From Bacteroidota bacterium (lineage in GTDB: Bacteria > Bacteroidota > Bacteroidia > Chitinophagales > BACL12), in the NCBI GenBank assembly GCA_016124275.1, contig WGOA01000045.1, forward strand, positions 35,055 to 99,054: DNA of 64,000 bases, in the 5' to 3' direction. How positions within the stretch are numbered: position 1 is the stretch's first letter; each line of letters starts with the position of its first letter. The translations under genes were made by a program, and so were the position numbers. The notes below the pieces were generated by a model. It saw only the letters and a program-made list of their open reading frames with translations, ran no database searches and had not been told where the DNA came from. Positions 7,354-55,505 of the stretch are shown here, one piece after another.

Positions 7354-8652
7354 CTATCGGCCTGCATAGCGCAGAATCCAGGCATCCTCCTGGTTAAACG
7401 TTTTGCGCAGGGTAGCTAATTTGTTTGCTGCAACTGTATTATCTACGTCCACAAACATTCCTGCCCGATAGTTTCCATTTTCCGCAAAAAGGACGGCTCG
7501 CTGCCCAACTGGAGCTTTTACCGCCAGAAGCCTTTTTTCTGCTTCGTTTTTTGTTGGAAAAGAGCCTACGATAAGGTAGTAACCCTTTGGAGGCGCAATA
7601 CCTTCTGCATGGTAGAGCAGGGGCTGATTGACGATAGCCTCAGGCCGCGCAATTTTTGAAGGCGTTTCTGCGGGCGAATCAGTGGGCGCAGGAACAAGAG
7701 CATCGTTTGCAAGGCGCTGTTTTTCGCCTGAAACAACCGGGCCGGATCCTGGTTTTGGTGCTACCGTCAAAGGCTGGTTGCGGGAAAGCGATTCAACGGC
7801 GGTGGGTTGGTTTTTTTGACGCCACGTTGTGCGTAGTGCCAAGCTGTCTCTGGTAGCAAGGGCTGCGGCATAGCCAGTGGAATCTGGAATGGGGAGGATG
7901 GCCGCAGGAGTAACGGAAAGCAGTGTTGTTGTTGGACCAAAAGTGGCCATTTGGCGTTTAAGGCTCGGGATGAGCGGGTGAAGAATGGCTGCGCGCCCTT
8001 CCTCGATGACTGCTTCAGGACGCGGGGCTAACCACCTTGCCAGGCTGGTGGATTCTAAGGCCAAGCCACTCATTAAAATCTGCCATACGCCAAAGCACAT
8101 CAACACAAAAGCAGCAGCCCACCACCAGGTTTGTTTCGGCCAGCGCTCCCCAAAAGGCACTGTTGATGGTGTGGCATCTTCTTCCTCTGCGATTTCCTTG
8201 GGAGTTGGGGTTGGAGGGATGCGGGAACCGCCCGTGGTGAGGGGCAACGCCTTTAGAACCAGCAGGCCATAGGATTCCTCCAGAAAATTCTCGCGCTCCT
8301 CAGGAAGGAAGCGAAGTTTTGCATCCTCTTCCAGCAGTAACTTGCCCACTCCAGGAAAGCGCAGCGTTCTATCGCGTGTTAGGCGTTGGTGGCATCGCTC
8401 CGAAAACTGGCGCACCAACTCTTCGGCCGACGCATAAGGAAGCCCTTCTGATTCTGCTAAACTGTTTACAAGAAGCCCGTCGTTCCGCTCTAACCTTGGA
8501 TTGAATGCGATCGCTTTATCTGGAGGATAGAACTCTCCTGTACCCGGGTGCATTCTTGCAGACCGGTACTCGCTCACAAAGCCGCCCAGACCGGGCACTA
8601 TGACACAATTGTGCCGGTAGAGCAGATGTCCAATAAAGGGTAAGAGGTCCAC
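7354..8652 (-). CDS. HU-CCDC81-like N-terminal domains + C-terminal SPOR (peptidoglycan-binding) protein
   Basis: N-terminal 'LLYRHNCVIVPGLGGFVSEYRSARMHP..EFYPPDKAIAFNPRLERNDGLL' is the Bacteroidota HU-CCDC81 pattern. There is a mid-protein TM segment (WWWAAAFVLMCFGVWQILM). C-terminal 'YYLIVGSFPTKNEAEKRL...NYRAGMF' is SPOR-like. Confidence 0.75.
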   Translation of the reverse strand: MDLLPFIGHLLYRHNCVIVPGLGGFVSEYRSARMHPGTGEFYPPDKAIAFNPRLERNDGLLVNSLAESEGLPYASAEELVRQFSERCHQRLTRDRTLRFPGVGKLLLEEDAKLRFLPEERENFLEESYGLLVLKALPLTTGGSRIPPTPTPKEIAEEEDATPSTVPFGERWPKQTWWWAAAFVLMCFGVWQILMSGLALESTSLARWLAPRPEAVIEEGRAAILHPLIPSLKRQMATFGPTTTLLSVTPAAILPIPDSTGYAAALATRDSLALRTTWRQKNQPTAVESLSRNQPLTVAPKPGSGPVVSGEKQRLANDALVPAPTDSPAETPSKIARPEAIVNQPLLYHAEGIAPPKGYYLIVGSFPTKNEAEKRLLAVKAPVGQRAVLFAENGNYRAGMFVDVDNTVAANKLATLRKTFNQEDAWILRYAGR

Positions 8653-17680: not shown

Positions 17681-17763
17681 AAATGCGTTTTTTTGAGGCA
17701 CCGCGCATACACGCAGAGCGTAAGGAATCCTCAAAAGTACGAAAACCTTTAACTGACCTCCCA

Positions 17764-18462
17764 TTGGCTACGCACGACCTTCCTCAGACTGCCCTAAATT
17801 CTAAGCATGTTGTTCGCGCAGTTCGCCTGACCAAAGCTTATGGTGATCTTACCGTTCTCAAAGGCGTTGACCTGGAGGTTGAACGCGGGGAGGTAGTGGC
17901 CATTGTCGGAGCCAGCGGGGCCGGGAAATCTACCTTGCTGCACCTGCTCGGTACGCTGGACAGACCTGACTCCGGGCAAGTTTGTATTGCCGGTGAACAG
18001 GTCAGCGACTTGCCAAAGACCCGGTTGGATGCCTTTCGCAACCGCAGCATTGGCTTTGTGTTTCAGGCCCACCATTTGCTGGCAGAGTTTTCGGCCCTGG
18101 AAAACGTGATGATTCCCGGCTTGATTGCGGCCAGACCGGAAACGCAAGTCAGGGAGCGAGCAAAAGCGTTGCTCGGACAACTGGGCCTATTCGCCCGATT
18201 GGATCACAAACCCGGACAACTCTCTGGCGGCGAGCAACAACGTGTCGCTGTGGCGCGGGCCTTGCTCAATGAGCCGGATGTTATTCTGGCCGATGAACCT
18301 TCCGGCAACCTGGATTCTGATCATTCGAGGGAGCTGCACCAACTTTTCTTCAAATTGCGGGAGCAATTCGGGCAAACCTTTGTCATTGTTACCCATAACC
18401 CTGATCTGGCGGCGATGGCCGATCGCAAGCTGGTGATGGTTGATGGTCGAATGGCCCCGTAA
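17764..18462 (+). CDS. ABC transporter ATP-binding protein (LolD/FtsE-like)
   Basis: Walker A '[11 protein letters not shown]', signature '[15 protein letters not shown]', Walker B '[11 protein letters not shown]'. The track start at 17683 abuts the divergent gene and adds ~40 aa, so I propose the in-frame TTG at 17764. The start remains uncertain. Confidence 0.8.
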
Positions 18463-18565
18463 GCCTGCGCTGGGGCAGCACCATTCAAGGGGCTCTGGTT
18501 GGGTTGCCTGACGCATGGTTTCTTATACCTTCGGAACGGGGGCGGTTCAATTGGACAGATGACCC

Positions 18566-18573
18566 TACCTTTG
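18566..18573 (+). promoter_or_regulatory. candidate Bacteroidota sigma-A -7 box (TAnnTTTG)
   Basis: TACCTTTG lies 48 nt upstream of the radical-SAM ATG (18621). This is a motif match only. Confidence 0.3.
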
Positions 18574-18620
18574 CATCCTGTTTTCGAATGGTATTTTTCA
18601 CTTAAGGAAACGTTCTTCTA

Positions 18621-19727
18621 TTGGCTTTTGGAATCAACAAAAGGCGGCTGAAAAAAGCTGCGCATCGGCTAAGGCACTTGCCTGGCGGCCTTGATTTTTT
18701 CCGATACTCCGGCAACAAAGTTCACGCGGCGTGGCTGCGGACCCGCAAGAGCACCCGGGTTGCCCATCCTTCTTCCATCATGTTGGAAGTGACCAACCAC
18801 TGCAACCTGAAGTGCATTACCTGTCCGCGCGAGTACCAGTTTGGGGAGGACATGGCCAAGGGCTTCATGGACATCCGGCAACTGCGCAAAGTGGTGGATG
18901 AAGTGTACCCGTACATTGACTCCATCGGTTTAACCGGTTTGGGCGAAACGCTGATGTACAAGCAGCTGGAGGAGGCGGTAGATTACATTCGCGCTAAAAG
19001 CGATGGCATTATTCTCTTTATCTCCATCAACGCCCACTTGCCCAAATGCGTGGAGATTGCCAGCCGTTTGGCCGATAAACTCGATACCATACAAATTAGT
19101 ATGGATGGGGTCGGTGATGTCTATGAGCAGGTGCGCCTGCGGAGCAATTACAACACCTTTTTTGAGAATACGCGAGCCATTACTGCCGCCGCGAAAGGCA
19201 AGCGGGCAGAGGTGATGTTTAATTTTGTGGCCGTTAAGGAAAACTACCACACGCTGGCAGAGGTTGTAGAGGCGGCCCACCAGTTAGGCGTGGGCTATGT
19301 CAACGTAACGCCTTTCAATGTGGCATCTGTTACGGCACACGATGTTTCGTATTACGACTTCTTTCAAACCGAAGCGTTCAAAAACGAAATCATCCGGGCC
19401 AAAGCCATGGCTGATCGCGTTGGTGATGTCATCCTGTCCATATGGGACTTCAAGAGTCCTGCAGGTTTCCAGAAATGCCACCTTCCCTGGTCGCACTTTT
19501 ACATCTCCTGGGACGGTTACATGACCCCTTGTTGTGCCAAACCTTTTCCCAAGGAATTAAACTTTGGGAACGTCTTTGAAGAGGGGCTCATGACCTGCTT
19601 GAACAAGCCCGGGTACCAACAATTTCGCCAACTCTGGTACACGAACGAAACCCCTGAATTTTGTCAGAAATGCCACATGGTTGATATGGCACCCATCCCG
19701 CTAGACGTGGATTTGCCGATCAATTGA
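18621..19727 (+). CDS. radical SAM enzyme with C-terminal SPASM/twitch Cys cluster
   Basis: 'EVTNHCNLKCITCPRE' is the CxxxCxxC radical-SAM cluster. C-terminal 'CHLPW..ISWDGYMTPCC....FGNV......C..C' is SPASM-like. The substrate is unknown. Confidence 0.75.
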   Translation: MAFGINKRRLKKAAHRLRHLPGGLDFFRYSGNKVHAAWLRTRKSTRVAHPSSIMLEVTNHCNLKCITCPREYQFGEDMAKGFMDIRQLRKVVDEVYPYIDSIGLTGLGETLMYKQLEEAVDYIRAKSDGIILFISINAHLPKCVEIASRLADKLDTIQISMDGVGDVYEQVRLRSNYNTFFENTRAITAAAKGKRAEVMFNFVAVKENYHTLAEVVEAAHQLGVGYVNVTPFNVASVTAHDVSYYDFFQTEAFKNEIIRAKAMADRVGDVILSIWDFKSPAGFQKCHLPWSHFYISWDGYMTPCCAKPFPKELNFGNVFEEGLMTCLNKPGYQQFRQLWYTNETPEFCQKCHMVDMAPIPLDVDLPIN

Positions 19728-36836: not shown

Positions 36837-37349
36837 CTACAACCAGCCTGTCCGGACCGCTAACTGCAACAACAGATTGGCATACAGGCCGGCAACAACA
36901 TCATCCAGCATGACTCCGACGCCCCCCCCCAGGCCCTCTGCCTTTCTGGCCAGCCAGGGTTTAACGATGTCAAAAAACCGGAAAAGCGCGAAACCGACCA
37001 AAGCCCCCACCCAGCTCCAGGGCACCAGCACCAGCGCAACCCAAACGCCCAGCCACTCGTCCAGGACGATCCGCGATGCGTCATCGCCCCAGTGGTGCTC
37101 GGCACGGGCGGCACTCCAAACCCCGACACCGAACAGCAGGACACAAGCAGCGAGCGCCAGAAAAGGTTGGTTCACCGAGCCGGGAAACGAACCCGGCAAC
37201 AGGTATTGCAACAAGGTCCAGGATGCCAAACCGCCCAAAGCACCAACGGTTCCGGGAGCCAACGGAGCATAACCCAAACCAAAACCGCTGGCCAGGACCA
37301 GGGCTATGCGATCCCGCGAGGCATTCCAATCCGTTCTCCCAGCACTCAT
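36837..37349 (-). CDS. pgpA: PgpA-family phosphatidylglycerophosphatase A-like protein (probable phosphatidylinositol-phosphate phosphatase)
   Basis: 'GFGLGYAPLAPGTVGAL...FRFFDIVKPW.......GGVGVMLDDVVAGLYANL' are the PgpA family motifs. The ATG overlaps the MIPS stop (ATGA). Confidence 0.8.
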   Translation of the reverse strand: MSAGRTDWNASRDRIALVLASGFGLGYAPLAPGTVGALGGLASWTLLQYLLPGSFPGSVNQPFLALAACVLLFGVGVWSAARAEHHWGDDASRIVLDEWLGVWVALVLVPWSWVGALVGFALFRFFDIVKPWLARKAEGLGGGVGVMLDDVVAGLYANLLLQLAVRTGWL

Positions 37350-38689
37350 GCGTTTTGAGCAGGTTCGTCGGAATAGTACTCCAGGCCGAGGTGCGTAATC
37401 AGCGTTTCACCCATGAGGTGCCGCAGGGTGTTCATCAGTTTTTCGCGCTGAATGAATACGTCGTGCTGGGCGTAGAGTCCAGGGGCAGTTTGGGGCGATT
37501 TAAAGTAAAACGATAGCCATTCCTGAACGCCTGACATGCCTGCCCGGGCGGCGAGATCCAGGAAAAGCGCCAGGTCCAGCACCAGCGGCGCGGCCAGAAT
37601 GGAATCGCGGCACAGAAAGTCGATCTTGATTTGCATGGGGTACCCCAGCCAGCCCGTGATGTCAATGTTGTCCCAGCCTTCTTTGTTGTCGCCCCGGGGC
37701 GGGTAATATTCGATGCGCACTTTGTGGTACAATTCGCCGTAGAGTTCCGGATGCCGTTCCGGCTCCAAAATCTGCTCCAGAACCCCGAGTTTGCTCACTT
37801 CCTTGCTGCGAAAATTGTCCGGATCGTCCAATACTTCTCCGTCGCGGTTGCCCAGAATATTGGTGGAAAACCACCCGCTGATGCCCAAACTGCGGGCTTT
37901 CAGGCCCGGCGCAACGATAGTCTTCATCAGGGTTTGGCCGGTTTTGAAATCTTTACCAGCCAGGGGCGCCCCCGTTTTCCTGGCCAATTCCACCAGCGCA
38001 GGCACATCGCAAGAAAGGTTTGGCGCTCCGTTGGCGTAAGGAATGCCCAGGCGCAAAGCCGCATACGCGTAAAGCATGCCGGGCGGCAAATCCGGGTGAT
38101 CCTGGTCAATGGCGCGTTCGAGCGCTTCCAGCGATTCGTGCACAGCCCCTGGAGGAAGGTAGCGTTCTGTGGATCCACACCAAATCATGACCAGACGGTC
38201 GCAACCCTCGCGTTGCTTGAACTGGCGCATATCTTCCATGAGCGCTTCCACCAGTGCGCGTTTGCTGGTTGATGGCTTGACGTTCGGACCGCTGATCCGG
38301 CTCACAAAACCGGGGTCAAAAACGGCAGGCATCGGGCGAATGGCTTCCAGGTCTTCGCGCACCGATTCCAGTAAATCCGGGCTCAGTACCCCGGCTTTGC
38401 GGGCGGCTTGGTAGCAATTGTCTTCGTAGATGTCCCAACCCCCAAAAACCAGGTCCTGTACCGCGCTCAGCGGAACAAAATCGCGCAAAAACGGGTTTCG
38501 GTGTTCCGTCCGCTGCCCGAGCCGAATGCTTCCCATTTGGGTCAGGGAGCCAATGGGCAAGGCAAGCCCTTTGCGCACAGCCAAAACTCCTGCAATGAAC
38601 GTGGTAGCGACAGCGCCCATTCCGGGCAGCAAAATGCCGAGTTTACCCGTTGCCGGACGCAGGGAAGCAGGGGAGGGAGGATTGCTCAT
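37346..38689 (-). CDS. ino1: myo-inositol-1-phosphate synthase (inositol-3-phosphate synthase)
   Basis: About 447 aa. 'GKLGILLPGMGAVATTFIAG' is the Rossmann N-terminus, and 'PYANGAPN', 'GKDFKTGQTLMKT' and 'SKEVSK' blocks are typical of bacterial/archaeal MIPS. The start is set at Met 38689 (MSNPPSPASLRP...). Confidence 0.8.
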   Translation of the reverse strand: MSNPPSPASLRPATGKLGILLPGMGAVATTFIAGVLAVRKGLALPIGSLTQMGSIRLGQRTEHRNPFLRDFVPLSAVQDLVFGGWDIYEDNCYQAARKAGVLSPDLLESVREDLEAIRPMPAVFDPGFVSRISGPNVKPSTSKRALVEALMEDMRQFKQREGCDRLVMIWCGSTERYLPPGAVHESLEALERAIDQDHPDLPPGMLYAYAALRLGIPYANGAPNLSCDVPALVELARKTGAPLAGKDFKTGQTLMKTIVAPGLKARSLGISGWFSTNILGNRDGEVLDDPDNFRSKEVSKLGVLEQILEPERHPELYGELYHKVRIEYYPPRGDNKEGWDNIDITGWLGYPMQIKIDFLCRDSILAAPLVLDLALFLDLAARAGMSGVQEWLSFYFKSPQTAPGLYAQHDVFIQREKLMNTLRHLMGETLITHLGLEYYSDEPAQNA

Positions 38690-38690
38690 A

Positions 38691-38716
38691 AGGTATATGC
38701 AACAGGTATAGGCAAC
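38691..38716. repeat. 13-bp tandem duplication abutting the MIPS start codon
   Basis: The plus strand reads aggtatatgcaac|aggtataggcaac (12/13 identical). On the coding (minus) strand this is GTTGCCTATACCT GTTGCATATACCT, followed by one T and then ATG. Confidence 0.85.
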
Positions 38717-38836
38717 GATAGAGCGCCAAGGGTTCCAAGAGTTCCGGGGAACAAACCGCACCGGTCAGCCCAGCTCCAATTCACTAAACCGCTTGCAAAA
38801 GTACGCCTGCTAAATCCGAATAGCCTGTTCCGCCAA

Positions 38837-38929
38837 GGAAAGGACCGCCTTGTGGAAAACTGCCAGCAGCGACAAGGCAGCAGAAGCACAGCCCACGGGG
38901 AAGGACCCCGTCGTGGAAAACTGCCAGCA
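38837..38929. repeat. two 32-bp direct repeats (28/32 identical), period 61 bp
   Basis: GGAAAGGACCGCCTTGTGGAAAACTGCCAGCA (38837..38868) and GGGAAGGACCCCGTCGTGGAAAACTGCCAGCA (38898..38929). Both lie in the 260-bp spacer between the CDP-alcohol transferase and MIPS genes. Confidence 0.85.
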
Positions 38930-38949
38930 TCCACCAGGTTAGGAAACGA

Positions 38950-39615
38950 TCAACTGCCGGTTTTCCGCAAGGTCTGATAGCCCCGGTACAACCGCTGAAA
39001 GGCGGTGAATCCGGCCCCCGAAACAACGATCCAGAGGGCGGGTTCCAGGATGCGTTGCCACAAGAGAGCATCGCCCTTCGCCCGAAATCCTAAAAGGCCG
39101 CAAACCAGGGCCGCCAGGCTGATCAGCACCAGGCGTTCCGGGCGTTGAAACAGGCCAAAGCTGCCGGTTTGTCCAAGGCCTTCTGTGCGTGCGCGGGTGT
39201 AAGAAACCATGATGGAAAAAACCATAGCCAGGTAAGCAGCGAGCAAGGTACGGGGTTGGTCAAGGCTGTAGGCTGCCCATCCGATGCCCATAAACATGAC
39301 CAGCTCTGCGTAGCGGTCCAACACGGAGTCAAGAAGGGCACCTGCCGGACTGGCTGCCCCGCTGACTCGCGCAACCCGGCCATCCAGGATGTCAAAAAAA
39401 CCGCCGAGGAGCACCAGGCCGCCAAACTGGGCGAGTCCTGCATAAGCGGCCGGAAAGCCTTTGCCAGCTGCATGGATCAGGCACCAGGCCGCCCAGCCAT
39501 TGGCCAGCAATCCCAACAGCGTCAGCACATCGGGGGTTACGCGCAGCGCGATAAGCAGGCGGATGAGCGGCTGACTAAGGCGGTACAACAAATCCTGGAA
39601 CAAGTCCTTTAGCAT
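38950..39615 (-). CDS. CDP-alcohol phosphatidyltransferase (probable phosphatidylinositol-phosphate synthase)
   Basis: 'FFDILDGRVARVSGAASPAGALLDSVLDRYAE' is the D(x)2DG(x)2AR...G(x)3D(x)3D signature. The protein is multi-TM. The start is set at Met 39615 (MLKDLFQDLL...). Confidence 0.8.
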   Translation of the reverse strand: MLKDLFQDLLYRLSQPLIRLLIALRVTPDVLTLLGLLANGWAAWCLIHAAGKGFPAAYAGLAQFGGLVLLGGFFDILDGRVARVSGAASPAGALLDSVLDRYAELVMFMGIGWAAYSLDQPRTLLAAYLAMVFSIMVSYTRARTEGLGQTGSFGLFQRPERLVLISLAALVCGLLGFRAKGDALLWQRILEPALWIVVSGAGFTAFQRLYRGYQTLRKTGS

Positions 39616-39762
39616 GGCTGAAAGAAACGGCGGCTCACAAAAGGAAAGCGGCAAAGCTAGTCGAATAAAAAAAATCCCGGCCAAACACCCGGGGTTTTAT
39701 AAACCTCGATGAAAACGATTAGGGACCTCCGCACGGTCTGGAATATCCTCTGTTCCTTAAAG

Positions 39763-39782
39763 TTATCCACTTGTTATCCACT
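39763..39782. promoter_or_regulatory. two tandem DnaA-box sequences, 11-bp spacing
   Basis: agTTATCCACTtgTTATCCACTgg. Each copy matches 8/9 of the TTATCCACA consensus, with a perfect TTATCCAC core. They lie in the 447-bp divergent intergenic region. Confidence 0.5.
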
Positions 39783-40062
39783 GGTGGTTGACGCGTAGGT
39801 TATCTTGGGGGAAGGGCTGCACGGCTTCGCGCAGCGCCTGAGGTCCATTCTGGCTCCGGCGAGCAAGGCCCCGGATGGCGAAACTGTTAGGTTTAAAAAA
39901 GCTGGTGGTGTTTGTCCGGGAAGACAATGAACGGGAGCGATGCTCCCGGATATGGAAAAGAACGGATGGACAAGATAGGACGAATATCCAGGCGGTACAA
40001 CGGTGGAACGGGCGGATTAATCGCGTATCTTCGTAGACTTTCGATCAAAAAACTCGCTGCGG

Positions 40063-40629
40063 ATGCCTACCCCCTTCGCCTTACGGATGCTGCTGTTGCT
40101 GCTGCTGGCTTGTCCTGTTTTGAATGCCCAGATTGATGGTGCGGTGCGCCGCAATCTTGTCGCCAACATGGAGCAGGATGCCGGTATGTACCTGTTGATC
40201 AAGGATGCCTCCGGGCGCCTGGTACCGGGTAATTTGTCGGCCAAAGAAAAGCCCGGTCACATTACCATCTCCGGGTTTACCCAAACCTCAGAAGCCGCAC
40301 AGGAAGGCAAAGCGGTAAGCCTGGGGCAGGTCCGGATTACCAAGTCGGTTGGCGAGTCCACTGCCGTGCTTTTAGAAGCCCTGAGCGAAGGGCAGGTTTT
40401 AAAGCAGGTTGATGTCCTGGTGTATAAAAAGAAGTCAGACGGCACCGAGATTGAAGAGTTCCGACTCAAATTGGAGGACGTTACGGTGGTTTCCGTACAG
40501 ACGCGCTTTAAAGCGGGCAACAGCCGCATTCCAAACTCTACGCTGGTAGAAGAGGAGGTGGTTTTGGACTACCGCGCGATCACATGGTTGCTGGATGATG
40601 GCACCTCTTCGTTTCGCGCTGAACAATGA
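40063..40629 (+). CDS. Hcp (type VI secretion tube protein)-like protein with predicted N-terminal signal peptide
   Basis: Residues 36-188 follow the Hcp/PF05638 pattern by eye: GMYLLIKDASG..., HITISGFTQ, VRITKSVGESTAVLLEALSEGQVLKQVDVLVYKK, FRLKLEDVTVVSVQ, EEVVLDYRAITW. Residues 1-23 (MPTPFALRMLLLLLLACPVLNAQ) look like a Sec signal. An alternative start is Met36 at 40168. Confidence 0.6.
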   Translation: MPTPFALRMLLLLLLACPVLNAQIDGAVRRNLVANMEQDAGMYLLIKDASGRLVPGNLSAKEKPGHITISGFTQTSEAAQEGKAVSLGQVRITKSVGESTAVLLEALSEGQVLKQVDVLVYKKKSDGTEIEEFRLKLEDVTVVSVQTRFKAGNSRIPNSTLVEEEVVLDYRAITWLLDDGTSSFRAEQ

Positions 40630-40818: not shown

Positions 40819-41673
40819 TTGCCTCCACCGTCTATGGTTCGATTGGTCTGTCTCCTGTCAGGTATGCTGCTATTAGCGTCTGCACAGGGTAATACACATG
40901 CTTCCGCTAACCAAGCGAAGGCAGCCGGCCCCGTTTCGGGTGCTGCTGCTTCCTTAAATCGGCCCCAGGCACCTGCCAATACCCCTCTTTTGGTAGCGAA
41001 TGGTCCGGAGACCGAAGACAACAACCGGGGTTTGCTCGCAGCGGTCTCCAAAGCTGCCGAAGTTCGGTTAAGCCAGGAGTATGTGCGTTTTGCGGAGCGC
41101 CAAAGCCTGCCTGATCGCGATGTGTTTATCCTGGCCATGACGGGTTTTGAACAACTGCAACGCCAGGGCAAACTGCTCAACGAGCGCTACCTGACCGTGG
41201 TTGATTTTCGCTTGCCCTCCACCCGCGAAAGAATGTGGGTGTTGGACATGGTTGAGCGCAAAGTGGTGTTTAAAACCCTGGTTGCGCACGGCGTCAATTC
41301 CGGTGAGCTCTATGCTACGGAGTTCTCCGATCGCCCGCAGAGTTTTCAAAGCAGTCCCGGTTTTTACCTGGCCAGCGAGTCTTACATCGGCAAGCACGGC
41401 TTGTCCCTGCGCCTGGATGGTTTGGAGCCCGGCATCAATGGCAATGCCCGCGATCGCGCCATTGTTTTGCACGGCGCAGATTACGTAAGCCAGGAGTTTA
41501 TCCGCGACAATGGTCGTTTGGGCCGCAGCCAGGGATGCCCATCCGTGCCCGTAGAATTGAGCCAGCCCATCATTGAAACCATTCAAGGGCAAAGCTGCTT
41601 TTTCATCCTCCAGCCCGGTCAGCAGTACCTGCAGAAGTCGCAACTGGTTCGCCAGTCTATGCTCGAAGGGTAA
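40819..41673 (+). CDS. L,D-transpeptidase catalytic-domain family protein (YkuD_2 type), secreted
   Basis: Signal peptide MVRLVCLLSGMLLLASAQG. 'LTVVDFRLPSTRERMWVLDM....VFKTLVAHGVNSG......FSDRPQSFQSSPGFYL..ESYIGKHGLSLRLDGLEPGINGNARDRAIVLHGADYV......GRLGRSQGCPSVP' matches the YkuD_2 family, including the catalytic SxGC. Confidence 0.8.
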   Translation: MPPPSMVRLVCLLSGMLLLASAQGNTHASANQAKAAGPVSGAAASLNRPQAPANTPLLVANGPETEDNNRGLLAAVSKAAEVRLSQEYVRFAERQSLPDRDVFILAMTGFEQLQRQGKLLNERYLTVVDFRLPSTRERMWVLDMVERKVVFKTLVAHGVNSGELYATEFSDRPQSFQSSPGFYLASESYIGKHGLSLRLDGLEPGINGNARDRAIVLHGADYVSQEFIRDNGRLGRSQGCPSVPVELSQPIIETIQGQSCFFILQPGQQYLQKSQLVRQSMLEG

Positions 41674-42398: not shown

Positions 42399-44006
42399 TC
42401 AGGCCTGAGCATTCTCCGCCTGTTCCGTCTTGAATTCCGAGTTGGTGTGGAAGCGCAGTTCCGGATAATTCTCCTGCGAAACATTTAAGATCCAGGCGGA
42501 CTCGGCAAAAAAGACCCAGTTGCCATCCTTGTCCGTGGCCACATGATCGCTTTTGTAGCGAAGAAATTCCTGCAGCTTAACGGGATTGTTTGTGGTAATC
42601 CAGCAAGCTTTGTAATAAGGGAGGTGGTGGAAGGTACTCCGCGCACCATATTCGTGCTCCAGCCGGTAGCGAATCACATCAAACTGCAATTCTCCGACCG
42701 TGCCCACAATTTTCTTGCTGCCGGGCTCTTTGATAAACAACTGCGCGACCCCTTCTTCGGTCAGCTGCCGAATGCCTTTATCCAATTGCTTGGACTTCAT
42801 CGGATCGTTGTTGACCACTTCGCGGAAAATCTCCGGCGAGAAGCTCGGGATGCCGCGGTACGTGAAGGCTTCGCCTTCTGAAAGCGTATCGCCGATTTTA
42901 AAGATCCCCGTATCGTAAAGCCCGATGACATCACCGGGCCAGGCCTCTTCAATCACCTCTTTGGAGCGGGCCATGAAGGAGTAGGGGTTCGAAAAACGGA
43001 CCTGCTTGTGCAGCCGGGTGTGTTGATAAAAAGTGTTGCGCTCAAACTTGCCTGAACAGACCCTCAAAAAGGCAATGCGGTCTCTGTGTTTGGGATCGAT
43101 GTTGGCGTGAATCTTGAACACAAAACCACTGAACATTTGTTCATTCGGTTTTACGTCGCGCAGATCGGTGGGGCGGGGCTGGGGTGGGGGAGCAATGCGC
43201 ACAAAGGCCTCCAGCATTTCCTGCACCCCGAAATTGTTGACGGCACTGCCAAAGAAAACCGGGGCAATCTCACCGCGGTGATAGGCCTCAATATCCAGTT
43301 TGTCGTAAACGCCGTTGATTAATTCGGCATCCTCGCGCAGGGCGTTGGCGGCTGAACCCAACTGCTCCTCCAACCGGGGATCATCCAGTCCTTCAATGGT
43401 CAGGACATCTTCTGTTCGCCGCACGCCTCCCGGACGAAACATGAGCAAATGGTGCTGGTCCAGGTCGTAAACGCCCTGAAAGGTCTTTCCCATGCCTACC
43501 GGCCAGGTCATCGGGCGCAGACTTATGTGCAGCTTTTCTTCCAATTCATCCAACAAGTCGAAGGGGTCGCGGCCGTCGCGATCCAGCTTGTTGATAAAGA
43601 TGATCACCGGGGTAGCGCGCATCCGGCAAACCTTCATCAGCCGTTCGGTTTGTTCCTCAACCCCCTTAACGCAGTCGATGACCAGCACGACGCTGTCCAC
43701 CGCAGTAAGCGTGCGGTAGGTGTCTTCGGCAAAGTCTTTGTGCCCGGGCGTGTCCAGCAGGTTGATCAACAGTCCCGAATACTCAAAACTCATCACCGAC
43801 GTTGCCACCGAAATACCGCGCTGCCGCTCAATTTCCATGAAGTCGGACGTGGCGCTCTTGCGGATCTTGTTGCTTTTAACGGCACCTGCCGTTTGAATAG
43901 CCCCACCAAAAAGCAAAAACTTCTCCGTCAGCGTGGTTTTGCCGGCATCCGGGTGCGAAATGATCGCAAAGGTTCGCCGTTTGGCGATTTCTTCAGGTAA
44001 ACTCAT
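42399..44006 (-). CDS. prfC: peptide chain release factor 3
   Basis: [44 protein letters not shown]... is the canonical PrfC N-terminus with G1-G4 GTPase motifs. The start is set at Met 44006. The track's 65-aa extension has no support. Confidence 0.95.
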
Positions 44007-44223
44007 CAGGCCGACAAAGTTAAGCCCACAAGGGCCTAAAACCTCATTTGGCTTGCGAGGGAGGGCAGTGCTGTGCGCCCATGCAGGCAGCAGCGGTCCA
44101 AGGGCTTGCCGAGGTGAACAAAAGTGCGCTTGGGGGGGGCTTAGGCCACCAAAAGTGACGAATCGCTGCACGCTCGTTTGGGCGAAAGGGTTTTGCGGCA
44201 TTTTTCGGCTACTTTGGCATGCC

Positions 44224-45702
44224 GTGAATTATCTCCCCGAAAGCCGGATTGAGCGGGAACTCAACAAGCTGCTTCCCGTGACGGTGCCGTACAACCTGCG
44301 CCGCCATTTTCCTTTTAAAGAACTGGGTCAGCGCCGGTTGGAGCTGCTCCTGTTTGCCCTTTTTCGGCGAGGACTGGAATCCGGTGCCTTCAAAAAGGAG
44401 TTTGACCACCTGAACATCAGCCACCCCGTAGAAGGACTGGGCAGAATAGGCTTGCTGCAATACCGCAAGCAGGCTGCCGGTGCGGTGCTTTGTATGCAAC
44501 AGGAGACTCCCCTGAATCCCGGCGATTTGATGCGGCATCTTTTGCTGTTTACCGAATTTTCAGCGCAGCACAGCCTGTTCAAAGCAACGCCAGCTCCGCG
44601 CATTTTTCTGGTTGTTCCCGGTGGTGTGGACGCAGCGGTGCAGGCGCTGACGCAGGATTGGCCGGCCGGGCTGGACAACCGGGAGCGGCCTTCTGTTTCA
44701 GCTATGGAGGATGGTGTAGCAAAAGGCGCGGAAGATCCTGGAGGTACCGAAAAGGGCAAGAGCCAGCCTGCAACCCCGCTTGTGCTTACTGCGCTGGATC
44801 GCGACCGGTTAAGGGCGCTTGATATTGAATGGCTGCTGCCCGTTGATCTGGACCCCATGCTGGTGGCAGAGCCGGACATCAAAAGCCTTTTTTTTGCCGT
44901 TGAAATGGTGGCTCCAGAGCAATCGCTCCGGCGTATTTTGGGTGAATTCCGGGTAGAAGAGCTGGGTGCGCCCGACATGGCTGCGCTCCTGGCCAAGATC
45001 AGCGCTAACGCAGGTCCGAGCATGAACGCTGTGGGGCTCATTCGGTTTTTTGGCTATCCGCGCGAATTTTTGCGCCAGTTGGTTAAGGACAAGGCGCTCC
45101 GGGAAATCATGATTAAAGGGGCCGAGTTCAAAGCGGAGCTGGATTACGCTGTGCTGGACTTTTTGCACCGAAAATGCCAGATGATTGGCAAAGTGTTGCT
45201 GGCCGCAGCGCCTGTTTCGCCCAATTCACCGGCCATGCAGGCAGTGGTACCCTATGTGTTTTCGAGGATGGTTATTAAATACCTAAAGAATACAAATTCT
45301 AAAGTATTGCAGGAAATTGCCCGTAGTGGCGCAAGGCGCGATTTCTACGAAGATGCCAACCTGGACCTGATTCGGGCTGATTTGCTGGCGCTGGCGGTTG
45401 ACCTGGCTGAGCAGGAGTCCGATGCTTTTCTGGCCGAAGACCTGCAGGAGCGCGCAAGGTTGGAAGCGCTCCGTCAGGCAGCACTAGAGCAACCAGATCC
45501 AGTTGTGCTTGCCCGGCAGTTTGCGGAAGACTGGGAAGCACTGCAACCCAGCGTCCGGTCTATGGAGAAGAAACTGCTGTCTTTTTTGCCCCGCGATCCG
45601 GTTCTGTTGCTGGACGATTTTGGATCGCTGAATGATGATAAGGGCAAAGCCAGCCGCTTGTTGGAGGGTTTTAAGAAGCGCTTCCAAAAGCCGGAACCCT
45701 AA
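44224..45702 (+). CDS. hypothetical protein (~492 aa), no family recognised
   Basis: Long ORF with protein-like composition. I propose the GTG start at 44224 ([17 protein letters not shown]...). The track start at 43933 overlaps the prfC 5' end. An N-terminal globular region is followed by an acidic/Gly linker ([20 protein letters not shown]) and an alpha-helical C-terminal half. Confidence 0.55.
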
Positions 45703-46642: not shown

Positions 46643-47371
46643 TTAACGCAACCGGCTCCAGTAGAGCTTGCGAAACGTGTTGACGGTGTCGTACTGAAGA
46701 CGCGATGCAGGAGCCTTCGGGAAATTCTTCCAGGATTCCGGAAATTCATACCCCCACTCGTTCATGTATTCGCTGAAGAGTTTGACCGCACGCGCCTGAA
46801 GCTCCGGGGTATCGTAGTACGACCAGAAATCGCGGCTTTTTTGGCCGGTAACGTTTTTGCTGGGCAATGGCCGCACTGGCTCTATGTTGATTTTGCGCAA
46901 CGCCGTGGCAAAATCTTCCTGCAAGTTTTCGTAGCGAATTAGATAATCAAACCTATGGTGATCCAGGATAGACCAACTGGAATAGGGCATGGTGTAAAAG
47001 CGCTTAAAAAATGCCCCAAAATCAGCTTCGTTTTCTTTGATGAATTCAAAACGACTGCGGTCCCAATAAAGAAGAAAATATTTGTGCAAAAAACCAAAAT
47101 CCTTTTTGCGCTGATTGGAATAGGCTCCAACGTGGTCAGTTTTGTATTTGAAAAACTTTGAAACGACAACATCCAAAGGATTTCTTATGTTTGAAAATAC
47201 AAAATACTTTTTTTCTTCTGGCGATGCCTGTTTCATAAAATCAGCATACAGCGCGTGCTTGAAGAGAATTTTCTCCCCCGCATAAAGCTCCAGCAATTCG
47301 TTCTGCACCGTGGTGCAGGCCGTTTGCGGTAACTGGATGTATACGTACTTGTGTTTGTGCGAAACGACCAC
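46643..47371 (-). CDS. sulfotransferase family protein
   Basis: 'KHKYVYIQLPQTACTTVQNEL' is a 5'-PSB-like loop of the Sulfotransfer_2-type family, and 'FVFSNIRNPLDVVVSKF' is a 3'-PB-like region. 242 aa. Confidence 0.6.
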   Translation of the reverse strand: MVVSHKHKYVYIQLPQTACTTVQNELLELYAGEKILFKHALYADFMKQASPEEKKYFVFSNIRNPLDVVVSKFFKYKTDHVGAYSNQRKKDFGFLHKYFLLYWDRSRFEFIKENEADFGAFFKRFYTMPYSSWSILDHHRFDYLIRYENLQEDFATALRKINIEPVRPLPSKNVTGQKSRDFWSYYDTPELQARAVKLFSEYMNEWGYEFPESWKNFPKAPASRLQYDTVNTFRKLYWSRLR

Positions 47372-47577
47372 GGCTAAACTTCAATTGTTCAGGCTTACGC
47401 AAAAACGGAAGCCCCGGTTACCTTTCCGAGCGCGAAGTTACCCAGAATCCAGCTCCTTTTCTGGGAAAAGCGGGTTTGAATGCGCGCAGCCATGCTAGGG
47501 AGCCTTCTTGTTCAACGGCCAATCCGCTTGCGCAGTTGGCTGAAAATCAGGAAGTTTCGCGGTATTTTCAGGCGCTC

Positions 47578-52110: not shown

Positions 52111-53871
52111 CTAAGGGGAAACCGAAGGCGATTCTACGGTTGGAGGAACCAGCGTGTCCGGGGATTGCGCTGCTGCTTCCAAAGCTTCCAGTTGCAGCTT
52201 GCGCTTGGCATCGTTGGCTAACATTTGCGCAGCTTCCCGCGCGCGATCCGCTTCAAAGGCGGCGTCTAATCCGTACAAGTCCAAGTGAAAGATTGGCCAG
52301 CCATCGGCATCTGCCCGTGCGGTGAAGTGCCTGAGATACACCGGAAGGCCAGGGCTCAAGGCTATTTTGTGCTCTTTGCGCTCCGCAATTTTTCGGTCTA
52401 CCAAAGCCATATCAGCCGATCCCGTGTCGCGAGCCAACAGATAGGCGGCAAAGTCCATAGGGCGATCCAGACGAACACAGCCGTGGCTGAAGGAACGGAT
52501 TTCGCTGTCGAAATAGCGCTTTGCATTGGTGTCATGCAGATAAACGCTATGCGTATTGGGAAAGAGAAATTTGACCAAACCCAAGGCATTGGACGTGCCG
52601 CCGTTTTGCCGCACCAGGTAGGGAAAGTTGCCCGCGCTGACCCCGTTCCAGTCAACAGCTTGGGCATCGACTACTGCGCCGCTTCGATCCCGGACCGTAT
52701 AACCGTTGCGGCTCAGGTAGCCAGGATCATTTTGGGTCTTGGGAAGAATTTCTTGTGTGGAAATGCTGTAGGGTACGTGCCAATAGGGATAGGCAACCAA
52801 TACATTAATGGTACTGGTTATTTCAGGTGTCTGATTGCTCCGCGTGCCTACGACGACGCGGTGCGTATGGACCGCTGTGTCTCCATCAATAATCTGCAAT
52901 TCAAAACCAGGCAGGCAAACCCATGCGAAGGGCTGGGTCCAGTCGTTTTCCCAGCGCCAGCGCTCTAAGGTGATAGCCAGGCTGCGGTAGCGGTCGGCAT
53001 TGCTGCGGCCCAGAGCCATGGCTGTGTTGGATCCGATGACCCCATCGTCTTTCAGCCCGTGCATGCGCTGAAAATGGCGCAACGCCAATTGGCTGAGGGA
53101 ATCGGAAGCCCAGCCTGCTGAATCGAGGAACCCTCGCAAGCGCAACAAGTCGCGAGCAAGGGCGTGCGCCTGAATGGAATCCTGTTTCTCTGTGGGTACC
53201 GTTGCAGTGCTGTCTTCCAAGGGGTAAGCCAGGATAAAGCGCGCGGTAGCTTGCTGCAGCGCGTGGTAAAGCGGATTGTCCGGCTGCAAGGCGCGCAGCC
53301 CTTGGTACCACGCACTCGAATCTGCCGAGCTGGCTAACCAAGCCAATAGATCGGGAACCCGCTCATTAGGTGTCCAACTTAGGGCCGCAGAGTCTGGTGC
53401 AAATTGTCCAACAGCCAGGTCATGGCCGAAGCGGAGCAACCCGTCACTGAGTTGCAGTTCCATCCTCGCGTAATCTTTAGGCGAAGCCAGCTCCTGCCGG
53501 GGTTCGGGGAGGTAATGCGCGGGTTCGAGCCCGTAACCCTTGGCGCCGCTGAGCAGCCTCATGGCCCGCCGCCGGGGCGCTTCCCCCAACCACAGGGCAT
53601 CGTAACCTTTGGCCTGGTAAAAGTCCCGCAGGAGCGTTGCACTGGGCAATTCGCGCCCTTCCACCTCCAACGCCTTGTTTTCGCGTCGGGTCAGCAGCTT
53701 TTCCAACTCTTTGCCCACATCCGCCCGCCAGATTTCCGGAACCTCAGGATTGGCCCCATTGTTTTGTGCGCCGGCTTCTTGGGAGTCCGCAGCATTGCAG
53801 GCCTGAAAAAACAGGCATGTACCGAGCGCCATCGCTGATAAACTGCCAAATCTGGGGGCGCTCATCCTCAT
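52111..53871 (-). CDS. L,D-transpeptidase family protein (YcbB/LdtD-like, with peptidoglycan-binding domain)
   Basis: 'LRHFQRMHGLKDDGVIGSNT' is a PG_binding_1 domain. 'VVVGTRSNQTPEI...' leads to the YkuD catalytic motif 'VYLHDTNAKRYF....R.FSHGCVRL'. The start is set at Met 53871 (MRMSAPRFGSLSAMALGTCLFFQAC, a lipoprotein-like signal). Confidence 0.85.
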   Translation of the reverse strand: MRMSAPRFGSLSAMALGTCLFFQACNAADSQEAGAQNNGANPEVPEIWRADVGKELEKLLTRRENKALEVEGRELPSATLLRDFYQAKGYDALWLGEAPRRRAMRLLSGAKGYGLEPAHYLPEPRQELASPKDYARMELQLSDGLLRFGHDLAVGQFAPDSAALSWTPNERVPDLLAWLASSADSSAWYQGLRALQPDNPLYHALQQATARFILAYPLEDSTATVPTEKQDSIQAHALARDLLRLRGFLDSAGWASDSLSQLALRHFQRMHGLKDDGVIGSNTAMALGRSNADRYRSLAITLERWRWENDWTQPFAWVCLPGFELQIIDGDTAVHTHRVVVGTRSNQTPEITSTINVLVAYPYWHVPYSISTQEILPKTQNDPGYLSRNGYTVRDRSGAVVDAQAVDWNGVSAGNFPYLVRQNGGTSNALGLVKFLFPNTHSVYLHDTNAKRYFDSEIRSFSHGCVRLDRPMDFAAYLLARDTGSADMALVDRKIAERKEHKIALSPGLPVYLRHFTARADADGWPIFHLDLYGLDAAFEADRAREAAQMLANDAKRKLQLEALEAAAQSPDTLVPPTVESPSVSP

Positions 53872-54014
53872 GCGGTGAAAATACACAGGCGTTTGACGCG
53901 ATTTATGCCCGCTATCCACAAGACGGCTGGGTATAGTCCGAAAGGCCCGTTGGTTAGCAACAAGCCCGTGGGTACGGGCAGAAATAATACCAGCCATGCG
54001 CCTGAAACTGCCCA

Positions 54015-55505
54015 TTATTCGTTCTTAAATCCAGGCTGGGGAATAGCATGCTCAAAGAGCAACGCCCCATCGACATCGTGAAAACGGACGTTCAAGACCC
54101 TGCGGCCCTTTCCCCCAATGATCTCCAGCATAGCAAAATTGCGTTGCTCCAGCAGCGAACCCGGCAACAAAAGGCTGTTGTGCTCCTCTTTGGGTTTATG
54201 CGCTCCGGACGTGAGCGGGGACACGGTCAGATCGTACACCCAGGCGCCACCGGGCAGCTCTAAACGGCTGATTTCGCTGTGGTGCCGATCGCCGCTGAGC
54301 ACGACAACGCCTCGGATGCCTTCCTGATCCATTCGCTGGAGCAAGCGCTGGCGCTCTTCCGGGGCCAGATTTTGATAGGTTTCCCACACTGCAGCCGTGT
54401 TCAGGAGTTGTCCGCCCATCAACACCAGCTTAAAGGTGGCTTTGCTGTTCAGCAGGCTGGCGATGAGCCAATCCTCCTGGGCAGCCCCGAGGAGGGTAGG
54501 GGCAAACGTTTTAGCGCCATTGGGGCTGCGGTGCCAGCGGTTGTCCAGCAGAAAAACATCCACATCAGCCCAACTAAATGCGCTCATGGTGCCCGTTATT
54601 CCTGCCGCCCCGTAGGAAGGGTTGGCCCAAAAGTCCCGGAACGCATCCAGCGTCCATTGCTTGTGGGCAAAACTGCCGTCGGCGTCATTCGGACCAAAAT
54701 CGTGGTCGTCCCAAATGGCGTAATTCGGCGCGATCCGCAATAACCGCTGCATTTCAGGGGTGGCGCGGGTATGGGCATAGCGGTGGTAAACCCCGCTGCG
54801 CGAACTGAAATCAGGATCGCGCAAATACGTGTTGTCCCCCAGCCAAAACATGGCGTCGGGCGCCTGATCCGCAATGGACCCAAAGATGCGGTAATCTCCA
54901 CCATAGGGTTTGCCCGGTCTATCATAGCCAGGCTCATTGATGTAGGTGCAACTGCCCGCTGCAAAACGAAGGGTAGGCAAGCTGTCCTGAAACTGCCACA
55001 CCAACGCAGTGTGAAAGGGTACACTTTCCGCTTCGGAGCGGTTGCCGTCCTGTGCTATCAGATAGATCCGTGAATTATATGCCTGATCTGGTTGCAAAAG
55101 GGTTGCCGTCAGCGTGCCCAGAAAAAAATCGCTGCCGTCCAGGGACAATTGCGCAGCGCGGACTTCCAAGGGCGCATCCACCGGCCAACATTCCCAAATG
55201 GCTGTGCAAGCCCGGTCTGCGCGAACCCAGAGCTTGGCTTCCCGGTAAGTGATGTGCCCAAGCATGAGGCCCAAGAGGGCTGGAGCCTCTTCCATACCAT
55301 TGGGCATGCTATGCTTCGGGGGAAGGGGGACTCTCTGCTCCGCGGCAGTTGCCGTCAATCCCGGAGACAGTTCCAGCGCCCGTCCGGAGGTCCAACCTGG
55401 TTGCGGGGAGCAGACGAAAAACAGGGCCAGGATGATGCTCCATGATGCTCCCGATGGGCATTGCCTGTAAACCATAGCCGGGCTTAAGCGAGACGTGATC
55501 ATCAT
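54015..55505 (-). CDS. alkaline phosphatase D (PhoD) family protein
   Basis: 'FAAGSCTY', 'FWLGDNTYLRD', 'IWDDHDFGPNDADG' and 'VLSGDRHHSEI' are PhoD-like metallophosphatase motifs. The start is set at Met 55505. Confidence 0.8.
   Translation of the reverse strand: MMITSRLSPAMVYRQCPSGASWSIILALFFVCSPQPGWTSGRALELSPGLTATAAEQRVPLPPKHSMPNGMEEAPALLGLMLGHITYREAKLWVRADRACTAIWECWPVDAPLEVRAAQLSLDGSDFFLGTLTATLLQPDQAYNSRIYLIAQDGNRSEAESVPFHTALVWQFQDSLPTLRFAAGSCTYINEPGYDRPGKPYGGDYRIFGSIADQAPDAMFWLGDNTYLRDPDFSSRSGVYHRYAHTRATPEMQRLLRIAPNYAIWDDHDFGPNDADGSFAHKQWTLDAFRDFWANPSYGAAGITGTMSAFSWADVDVFLLDNRWHRSPNGAKTFAPTLLGAAQEDWLIASLLNSKATFKLVLMGGQLLNTAAVWETYQNLAPEERQRLLQRMDQEGIRGVVVLSGDRHHSEISRLELPGGAWVYDLTVSPLTSGAHKPKEEHNSLLLPGSLLEQRNFAMLEIIGGKGRRVLNVRFHDVDGALLFEHAIPQPGFKNE

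Follow-up and report, generated by a model that had tools for sequence, protein, structure and literature searches.

A conserved Hcp-family protein with a predicted Sec leader, encoded among housekeeping genes in an uncultured Chitinophagales lineage

The window analysed here, a stretch of 64,000 nucleotides from contig WGOA01000045.1 of the Bacteroidota bacterium assembly GCA_016124275.1, carries between a divergent inositol-lipid operon and a YkuD_2-GNAT gene pair an open reading frame (ORF) related to Hcp (TssD), the tube protein of type VI secretion systems (T6SS), whose product appears to be made as a Sec precursor. This ORF occupies positions 40063..40629 of the forward strand, starts with ATG and encodes 188 amino acids followed by a stop codon, and its product is 100 % identical to a database protein (P0001) that NCBI names 'MAG: type VI secretion system tube protein Hcp [Bacteroidetes bacterium]', where MAG denotes a metagenome-assembled genome. 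From its start, the precursor comprises a predicted Sec/signal peptidase I (SPase I) signal peptide (residues 1-22, 40063..40128), a clade-specific N-terminal extension of the mature protein (residues 23-41, QIDGAVRRNLVANMEQDAG, 40129..40185) with a near-invariant V/M-R-R/K-N-L/I motif, an Hcp/TssD domain delimited by PF05638, TIGR03344 and the predicted fold (residues 42-182, 40186..40608) and a C-terminal tail (residues 183-188, 40609..40626), which, in the alignment of close homologues, forms the end of a conserved DDGTSS(F/Y)RxE(R/Q) motif. The N-terminus reads MPTPFALRMLLLLLLACPVLNA|QIDG, and a longer stretch of the precursor start is MPTPFALRMLLLLLLACPVLNAQIDG. An earlier note on this DNA had described an orphan Hcp-like ORF that begins with a textbook signal peptide; the ORF and its leader were found as described, and the n-h-c leader with its AxA|Q site proved to be conserved in the clade.

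The resemblance to Hcp was confirmed by means of profile, sequence and structure searches. The product matched PF05638 (T6SS_HCP) at E=6.3e-15. This match scored 56 bits, the gathering score being 23.5, and aligned residues 43-175 with positions 1-127 of the 129-position profile. The NCBIfam model TIGR03344 (TssD) was matched along residues 42-182, its 60.5 bits lying above the cut-off of 58.9. The phmmer search of PDB sequences retrieved Hcp1 of enteroaggregative Escherichia coli (EAEC; 4hkh; E=1e-8) and, ranked after it, further Hcp chains. Moreover, the AlphaFold2 monomer model of the mature protein, built from a 12-sequence alignment, revealed a beta-barrel with one helix (predicted local distance difference test, pLDDT, 79; predicted template modelling score, pTM, 0.76), and the best 50 Foldseek PDB matches listed were all Hcp-containing entries, the best structural match among those listed being 4hkh (E=5e-11, template modelling scores 0.74/0.86, 27 % identity). 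These matches exclude the lack of any significant Hcp profile or structure match, and the product of the window gene was shown to be a true member of the Hcp family in both sequence and fold. The block-by-block alignment with the proteobacterial template that had been drawn before held as to similarity and failed as to register, which was about 2 residues off, since canonical residue 5 corresponds to query residue 42 and canonical Met1 falls at about residue 38, not at Met36. The statement that the protein is not of the Bacteroidota T6SS-iii TssD type gained indirect support, in that no Pfam or NCBIfam tube-protein model besides PF05638 and TIGR03344 matched at E<=10.

The leader presents an n-region with R8, an h-region (MLLLLLLACPVL) of 12-14 residues, the best 10-residue window of which has a mean Kyte-Doolittle value of 2.97, and a c-region LNA, with the predicted cut before Q23. 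Substrates of SPase I in Bacteroidetes follow a Q-rule, carrying after the cleavage site a Gln that is cyclised to pyroglutamate (PMC5837995, PMC10653852). The window leader fits this pattern in its charged n-region, uncharged h-region, small -1/-3 residues and Gln at +1, and six further ORFs of the window with exported products have a Gln directly after the leader, such as the TonB-dependent receptor (SLFA|QNG) and the YkuD_2 neighbour (LASA|QGN). When the seven close relatives were aligned, six started with a hydrophobic leader ending in a small-x-small motif followed by Gln (LNA|Q, LQA|Q, VKA|Q, VRA|Q, ASA|Q, AQA|Q), and the seventh, P0007, had its start called too short, its locus encoding in frame MKAISIRSILSLFVLVSFTSQASA|QLEGTMRRNL, which makes the leader present in 7/7. 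Across the clade, the leader was kept in 13 of 14 sequences (36-94 % identity), the fourteenth, P0010, being N-terminally cut short.

The same comparisons decided between the two start codons that the earlier note had weighed, Met1 and Met36, in favour of Met1. In the alignment of close homologues, Met36 gives way to G/A/A/S and Met42 to T/I/S/T, and residues 23-35, upstream of Met36, hold a DGxVRRNL motif that is near-invariant both there and in the 14-sequence alignment. An internal start at Met36 or Met42 was therefore ruled out, these Mets being unconserved and the segment upstream of them being conserved coding sequence. Export by Sec and processing by SPase I before Gln23 are well supported, although not proven, because the leader is conserved and the internal Mets are not, because the segment upstream of them is conserved, and because both the selection pattern described below and the Q-rule point the same way. 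A lipoprotein processed by SPase II was ruled out as well: the single Cys of the leader, Cys17, is absent or displaced in orthologues, so that there is no lipobox. No C-terminal sorting domain of the type IX secretion system (T9SS; Por_Secre_tail or CHU_C) was detected, PF05638 being the sole Pfam match and the protein ending 13 residues after it; in the same window T9SS cargo was detected normally by Pfam, with CHU_C in 1531-6207.

Selection was assessed against the closest orthologue, in the locus L009 of an uncultured Chitinophagales MAG, where synonymous sites are near-saturated (synonymous divergence, dS, ~1.6). The mature proteins differ at only three of 166 residues (non-synonymous divergence, dN, 0.020; dN/dS ratio, omega, 0.012), and the leaders at nine of 22 residues (dN 0.39, dS 1.18, omega 0.33). 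Leader dN is thus about 20 times mature dN, and the L009 leader nevertheless remains uncharged and hydrophobic, with xNA|Q. Such rapid turnover with preserved physicochemistry is a typical signature of functional signal peptides, as judged from these sequences. For the same genome pair, the omegas of neighbouring genes were 0.026 for prfC, 0.026 for WecG, 0.051 for the myo-inositol-1-phosphate synthase (MIPS), 0.066 for the CDP-alcohol phosphatidyltransferase, 0.092 for YkuD_2, 0.127 for GNAT and 0.153 for PgpA. It was shown in this way that extreme purifying selection acts on the mature part, more tightly than on any neighbour compared, including release factor 3 (prfC), and so low an omega is in keeping with a protein that makes extensive contacts, both homotypic and heterotypic.

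Both ends of the mature protein carry conserved residues. The N-terminal extension (residues 23-41) has no counterpart in canonical Hcp, and within it R29, N31 and L32 are invariant in the alignment of close homologues, R7 and N9 in mature numbering being at least 90 % conserved in two further alignments (A2, A3). Mature residues 4-12 were modelled by AlphaFold as a low-confidence helix, with pLDDT <50 at residues 1-13. At the other end, D179, G180, T181, S182, S183 and R185 are invariant in the close homologues.

With respect to genomic context, no T6SS core family was detected in the 64-kb window when Pfam was run on every ORF of at least 150 aa and Pfam calls were made across 30.7-50.4 kb, so that the absence of T6SS core genes stated by the earlier note was upheld over that range. 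Similarly, no T6SS Pfam family was found within ±10 kb in any retrieved homologue locus (L001-L017). The ORFs of at least 150 aa in the window encode T9SS cargo (PKD repeats, CHU_C), PorP/SprF, a TonB-dependent receptor, succinyl-CoA ligase, NusB, YchF, MsrB, a MacB/FtsX ATP-binding cassette (ABC) system, the inositol-lipid operon, YkuD_2, GNAT, release factor 3 and other housekeeping functions. In every homologue locus (L001-L017, 36-100 % identity) the Hcp-like gene occupies the same chromosomal slot, including those whose products are just 36-48 % identical, and its GC content at third codon positions (GC3) of 0.64, like that of its neighbours, indicates native composition. A horizontal-transfer island was ruled out by this composition together with the conserved slot.

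The clade is small. A word-indexed search among 5.8 billion protein clusters found seven close relatives, and a profile search raised the membership to 12 clusters of the same 5.8 billion, and an exhaustive HMMER scan of 1.84 billion representatives returned six at E<1e-30, the next match being a generic Hcp at ~1e-9. When genome contigs were searched, the clade was found in 3 of 185,579 GTDB species representatives, all of them uncultured Chitinophagales or Bacteroidota MAGs. On these data the Hcp-like gene is a core gene of one small, uncultured lineage of Chitinophagales, passed on vertically and kept under strong selection, and neither a mobile island nor a relic.

The 378-bp intergenic region (39685..40062), the presumed promoter region of the Hcp-like gene, is shared with the divergent inositol-lipid operon, and this divergent arrangement is present in all homologue loci. 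The sigma-70-type promoter scan, which does not cover Bacteroidota promoters, gave no site on the + strand of this region, and the promoter and terminator scan as a whole gave nothing useful, being of a type unsuited to Bacteroidota. The operon, read from the - strand, starts with the CDP-alcohol phosphatidyltransferase (38950..39684, PF01066), followed by MIPS (37346-38761, PF07994/PF01658) and PgpA (36837-37349, PF04608), these Pfam assignments having been made in the identical locus L001. As a set, the inositol-lipid operon (36837-39684), with a PgpA-like phosphatase, myo-inositol-1-phosphate synthase and CDP-alcohol phosphatidyltransferase, is conserved in most related loci, and MIPS is missing from its operon position in L005 and L008. 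Downstream, on the same strand as the Hcp-like gene, lies the YkuD_2 L,D-transpeptidase-like protein (40819..41673; PF13645, E=1.7e-63), which has its own leader ending in LASA|Q and is syntenic in all loci, an opposite-strand gene intervening in L016 and L017. This intervening gene, of the Thioredox_DsbH family (700-720 aa; L016 10604-12766 (-), L017 9837-11945 (-)), splits the Hcp-like/YkuD_2 order in the most divergent lineage. The window holds two L,D-transpeptidase-type proteins within 12 kb, YkuD_2 at 40819-41673 (+) and a 634-aa Scaffold plus YkuD protein at 52111-54015 (-).

Two candidate functions drawn from these neighbours were examined and set aside. Function by operon, from adjacency to the inositol-lipid operon, YkuD_2 or GNAT, was discarded because synteny extends over the entire region throughout the lineage, which leaves adjacency without specific functional meaning. 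A crystal structure of Tlde1a is presumably deposited in the PDB. A domesticated Hcp-Tlde1 pair was rejected, since the YkuD_2 neighbour had no PDB sequence match at E<=1, including Tlde1a, and the pair is split in L016 and L017; X-ray work on Tlde1a has been reported (PMC9638812).

Leaders were also observed on Hcp proteins beyond this clade. Among the distant single-domain Hcp representatives, 36 of 102 carried a classical n-h-c leader and were about 20-30 aa longer, a share inflated among the weak matches by a search profile that included the leader columns. In the subfamily that starts with 'MALNAYLxLKGQK...GSVTQKGREG', leaders were present in 15 of the 120 best matches (within P0134-P0247), with the AxA site placed exactly at canonical residue 2, as in MLKKLVAASLALALLAGTQTADA|ALNAYL. 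The leader-bearing ALNAYL members partly cluster together, and because some of them are 70-78 % identical to leaderless Hcps, their sequences suggest several independent gains of the leader. All four leader-bearing examples inspected were orphans, with no T6SS gene within ±10 kb (including loci L018, L019 and L020). Moreover, three proteins (P0019, P0089 and P0118) contain exactly six tandem PF05638 domains per chain (E 1e-153 to 1e-213) behind export-type N-termini resembling RRRLLVEALEGRALLA, and P0118 additionally carries Calx-beta and dockerin domains, which are extracellular modules. From their domain order, such six-Hcp chains look like a single-chain pseudo-hexameric ring, a covalent 'hexamer', set in an extracellular architecture. 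Multi-stretch matches in P0012 and P0110 were spurious, these being SprB and FG-GAP repeat proteins. The uniqueness that the earlier note had implied was not borne out, leader-bearing orphan Hcps recurring in other lineages. No description of signal-peptide-bearing Hcp homologues was found in full-text literature searches, and the window gene would apparently belong to a wider, undescribed set of leader-bearing orphan Hcps. It is a tentative idea, with the odds somewhat against it, that this set forms a widespread unrecognised class of Sec-exported Hcp rings that act in the periplasm or extracellularly and do without a contractile machine, with single-domain forms arising independently in several phyla and six-domain chains beside them.

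Taken together, these results favour, with a probability of about 0.6, the reading that the product of the window gene is a genuine Hcp protein, synthesised as a Sec precursor and working in the periplasm independently of a contractile machine. In this scheme the precursor would be translocated by Sec and cut by SPase I before Gln23, which would then be cyclised to pyroglutamate, as in most Bacteroidota SPase I substrates. The 166-residue mature protein would stay soluble in the periplasm, because it lacks a lipobox, a T9SS C-terminal domain and any signal known in Bacteroidota for export over the outer membrane. The inner membrane would then separate it from any cytoplasmic sheath, inside which it could not polymerise, and it would therefore work independently of the contractile machine. 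All characterised Hcps form rings, which are hexamers. More speculatively, a ring, probably a hexamer, might be assembled as in canonical Hcp, and its lumen or faces, together with the VRRNL N-terminal arm, might bind an envelope partner, as a binding, chaperone or scaffold ring. By analogy with canonical Hcp, a periplasmic Hcp-type ring is the best guess. The orphan, Sec-exported and repurposed Hcp fold proposed by the earlier note is supported as far as sequence analysis reaches, the gene being an orphan in the window and in all homologue loci, and the chaperone, carrier or structural-ring role that it suggested is conjecture.

Several points weigh against this reading. Export, cleavage and pyroglutamate formation are deduced from the sequence pattern and its conservation, the ring comes from homology while the structure prediction is that of a monomer, and the binding-ring role is a guess derived from what canonical Hcp does. 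The synteny of the neighbours is explained by the lineage-wide conservation of gene order and gives no functional clue, the absence of T6SS genes covers the 64-kb window and the ±10-kb loci, and the leader share among weak distant matches is inflated.

One alternative is that the protein is an ordinary cytoplasmic tube subunit with a miscalled start, translated from near Met36 or Met42 and used by a T6SS elsewhere in the genome. Its Hcp domain is complete and starts near residue 38-42, the identical protein is annotated as 'tube protein Hcp' by NCBI, and orphan hcp genes serving distant T6SS clusters are common; however, both Mets are non-start residues in most orthologues, the VRRNL segment upstream of them is among the best-conserved parts of the protein, the leader ORF is open and in frame with AxA|Q in every complete clade sequence, and a leader omega of 0.33 with physicochemical conservation is not neutral drift, so that this account is very unlikely. 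The leader could instead act as an uncleaved signal anchor that tethers the Hcp domain to the periplasmic face of the inner membrane, as the long, leucine-rich hydrophobic core (MLLLLLLACPVL) would allow. This is improbable to a lesser degree, given that small -1/-3 residues followed by Gln are conserved clade-wide, matching the SPase I Q-rule (PMC5837995) and the other exported proteins of the window, and that an h-region of 12-14 residues is short for a transmembrane anchor. Practically negligible is the notion of a functionless, decaying remnant of a lost T6SS or a prophage tail gene. It would account for the isolation from any T6SS gene and for a weak PHROG match (E=4e-4), but an omega of 0.012 at near-saturated dS effectively refutes it, and the ORF is intact in every complete orthologue recovered, with native composition and an Hcp domain of full profile length. 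A tail tube of a phage or an extracellular contractile injection system (eCIS) was likewise rejected, since that PHROG match is to a family without known function and the neighbours are housekeeping genes.

Two functional explanations then remain beside the binding ring. One is a periplasmic decoy or immunity factor, in which the exported ring would re-capture Hcp-lumen-dependent effectors or cap tube fragments delivered by attackers, with no need for a T6SS of its own. Immunity proteins against periplasm-acting effectors sit in the periplasm, the same location as predicted here, and canonical Hcp is said, in work of 2013 by Silverman and colleagues, to bind effectors in its lumen. The genes are orphans in all contexts seen, and the ALNAYL exported form has precisely the N-terminus of canonical Hcp, with which it can share 70-78 % identity, as a mimic would. 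The clade of the window protein, however, shares no more than 27 % identity with any solved Hcp among the matches listed, and is thus not a close mimic, and its omega of 0.012, fixed slot and strictly vertical inheritance are unlike those of arms-race defence genes; PADLOC, a library limited to anti-phage systems, gave no match to support anti-phage defence. Attractive as it is, the decoy is at odds with such conservation and inheritance, and is held to be unlikely. A shade less probable is a self-assembling envelope or extracellular structure, with exported rings stacking into tubes or fibres, or joining a surface layer or vesicle cargo, with no sheath. Purified Hcp1 rings can reportedly stack into nanotubes (Ballister and colleagues, 2008), the tight sequence constraint fits many homotypic contacts, and the six-tandem-Hcp proteins with dockerin and Calx-beta domains show Hcp rings outside the cell. 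Set against this are the lack of a T9SS C-terminal domain, lipobox or other known route over the Bacteroidota outer membrane, the lack of partner genes conserved beyond general synteny and, as a speculation, the N-terminal extension, which might hinder head-to-tail stacking. The decoy and the self-assembling structure are the two functional rivals left open.

Hcp is the classic case of secretion without a signal peptide, and its presence in the supernatant is a standard read-out of T6SS activity. A conserved and strongly selected Hcp routed through Sec would represent a second life of the Hcp ring in the cell envelope, and a periplasmic ring with a 40-angstrom lumen could serve as a chaperone, scaffold or anti-T6SS decoy of a new type. 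If the wider class is real, one attractive role would be to bind or neutralise incoming T6SS cargo, or to chaperone envelope proteins. Annotators should not take an orphan 'Hcp' gene with a leader as evidence of a T6SS; if the reading is true, leader-bearing entries named 'T6SS tube protein Hcp' are systematically mis-assigned and the presence of Hcp is an unreliable T6SS marker. The independent recurrence of leaders in other Hcp subfamilies and in the six-domain chains would make this a general and experimentally tractable question that goes beyond one MAG.

Other features of the window were recorded apart from the Hcp-like gene. At 1531-7259 (+), a 1558-aa protein with PKD repeats and CHU_C is followed by an overlapping PorP/SprF gene, a typical pair of T9SS cargo and PorP-like protein. 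At 7354-8652 (-) lies a 432-aa protein with two N-terminal CCDC81-like prokaryotic HU domains, which adjoins a 542-aa ORF with no Pfam match and a 1064-aa TPR-rich protein. An ABC-transporter ATPase followed by a radical SAM/SPASM-domain protein (17683-19727 (+)) may be a peptide-maturation pair. Two further proteins, of about 490 aa (43933-45702 (+)) and 242 aa (46643-47371 (-)), gave no Pfam match in their window copies, and their position is conserved in all related loci. In relatives, the 242-aa protein showed a Sulfotransfer_2 match, in some cases weak or faint, and the interval 46646-47380 had an omega of 0.026 against L009.

Compared with known systems, the window protein stands closest to the Hcp/TssD of T6SS-i, of the EAEC Sci-1 Hcp1 type (4hkh), with which it shares the full-length domain, the canonical motifs (the ITKxxxxSxxxLxxA helix and the EEVxLxYxxITW C-terminal strand) and, in its model, the same beta-barrel-plus-helix fold. 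It differs from that protein in its conserved, predicted cleavable Sec leader and its 19-residue mature N-terminal extension, in being encoded alone among housekeeping genes in every locus, and in its predicted periplasmic location, independent of sheath, baseplate and VgrG, whereas T6SS-i Hcp is cytoplasmic. Being neither leaderless nor linked to a T6SS, it lacks two of the features that define a functional T6SS tube subunit. With the TssD of the Bacteroidota T6SS-iii, which is leaderless and encoded inside T6SS-iii clusters, it has in common the phylum and the general tube-protein superfamily; the window protein instead matches the proteobacterial-type PF05638 and TIGR03344, and it is by these profile matches that the two are set apart. 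Proteobacterial orphan or auxiliary hcp genes, such as those of hcp islands and Hcp-ET fusion effectors, likewise lie away from the main T6SS cluster, and their products are fired by a T6SS encoded elsewhere, usually being flanked by vgrG, effector or immunity genes. To our knowledge, known orphan Hcps have no signal peptides, and the window gene differs from them in its Sec leader and in having no vgrG, effector or immunity neighbour.

Further parallels are the leader-bearing Hcps found in the survey. In P0197, P0146, P0206 and P0132, which are ALNAYL-type or other metagenomic Hcps, as in the window protein, the Hcp domain follows an n-h-c signal peptide and the gene is an orphan. The ALNAYL-type Hcps, however, form a different subfamily, which the clade profile matches at E ~1e-6 or worse as against 1e-35 or better within the clade, and their mature proteins start where canonical Hcp starts, lacking the VRRNL extension, after a cleavage site that, unlike that of the window protein, is not followed by Gln. 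Similarly, the six-tandem-Hcp proteins share with the window protein an export-type N-terminus and an Hcp fold outside a T6SS context, and they belong to an unrelated subfamily and lineage, with six Hcp domains per chain where the window protein has one.

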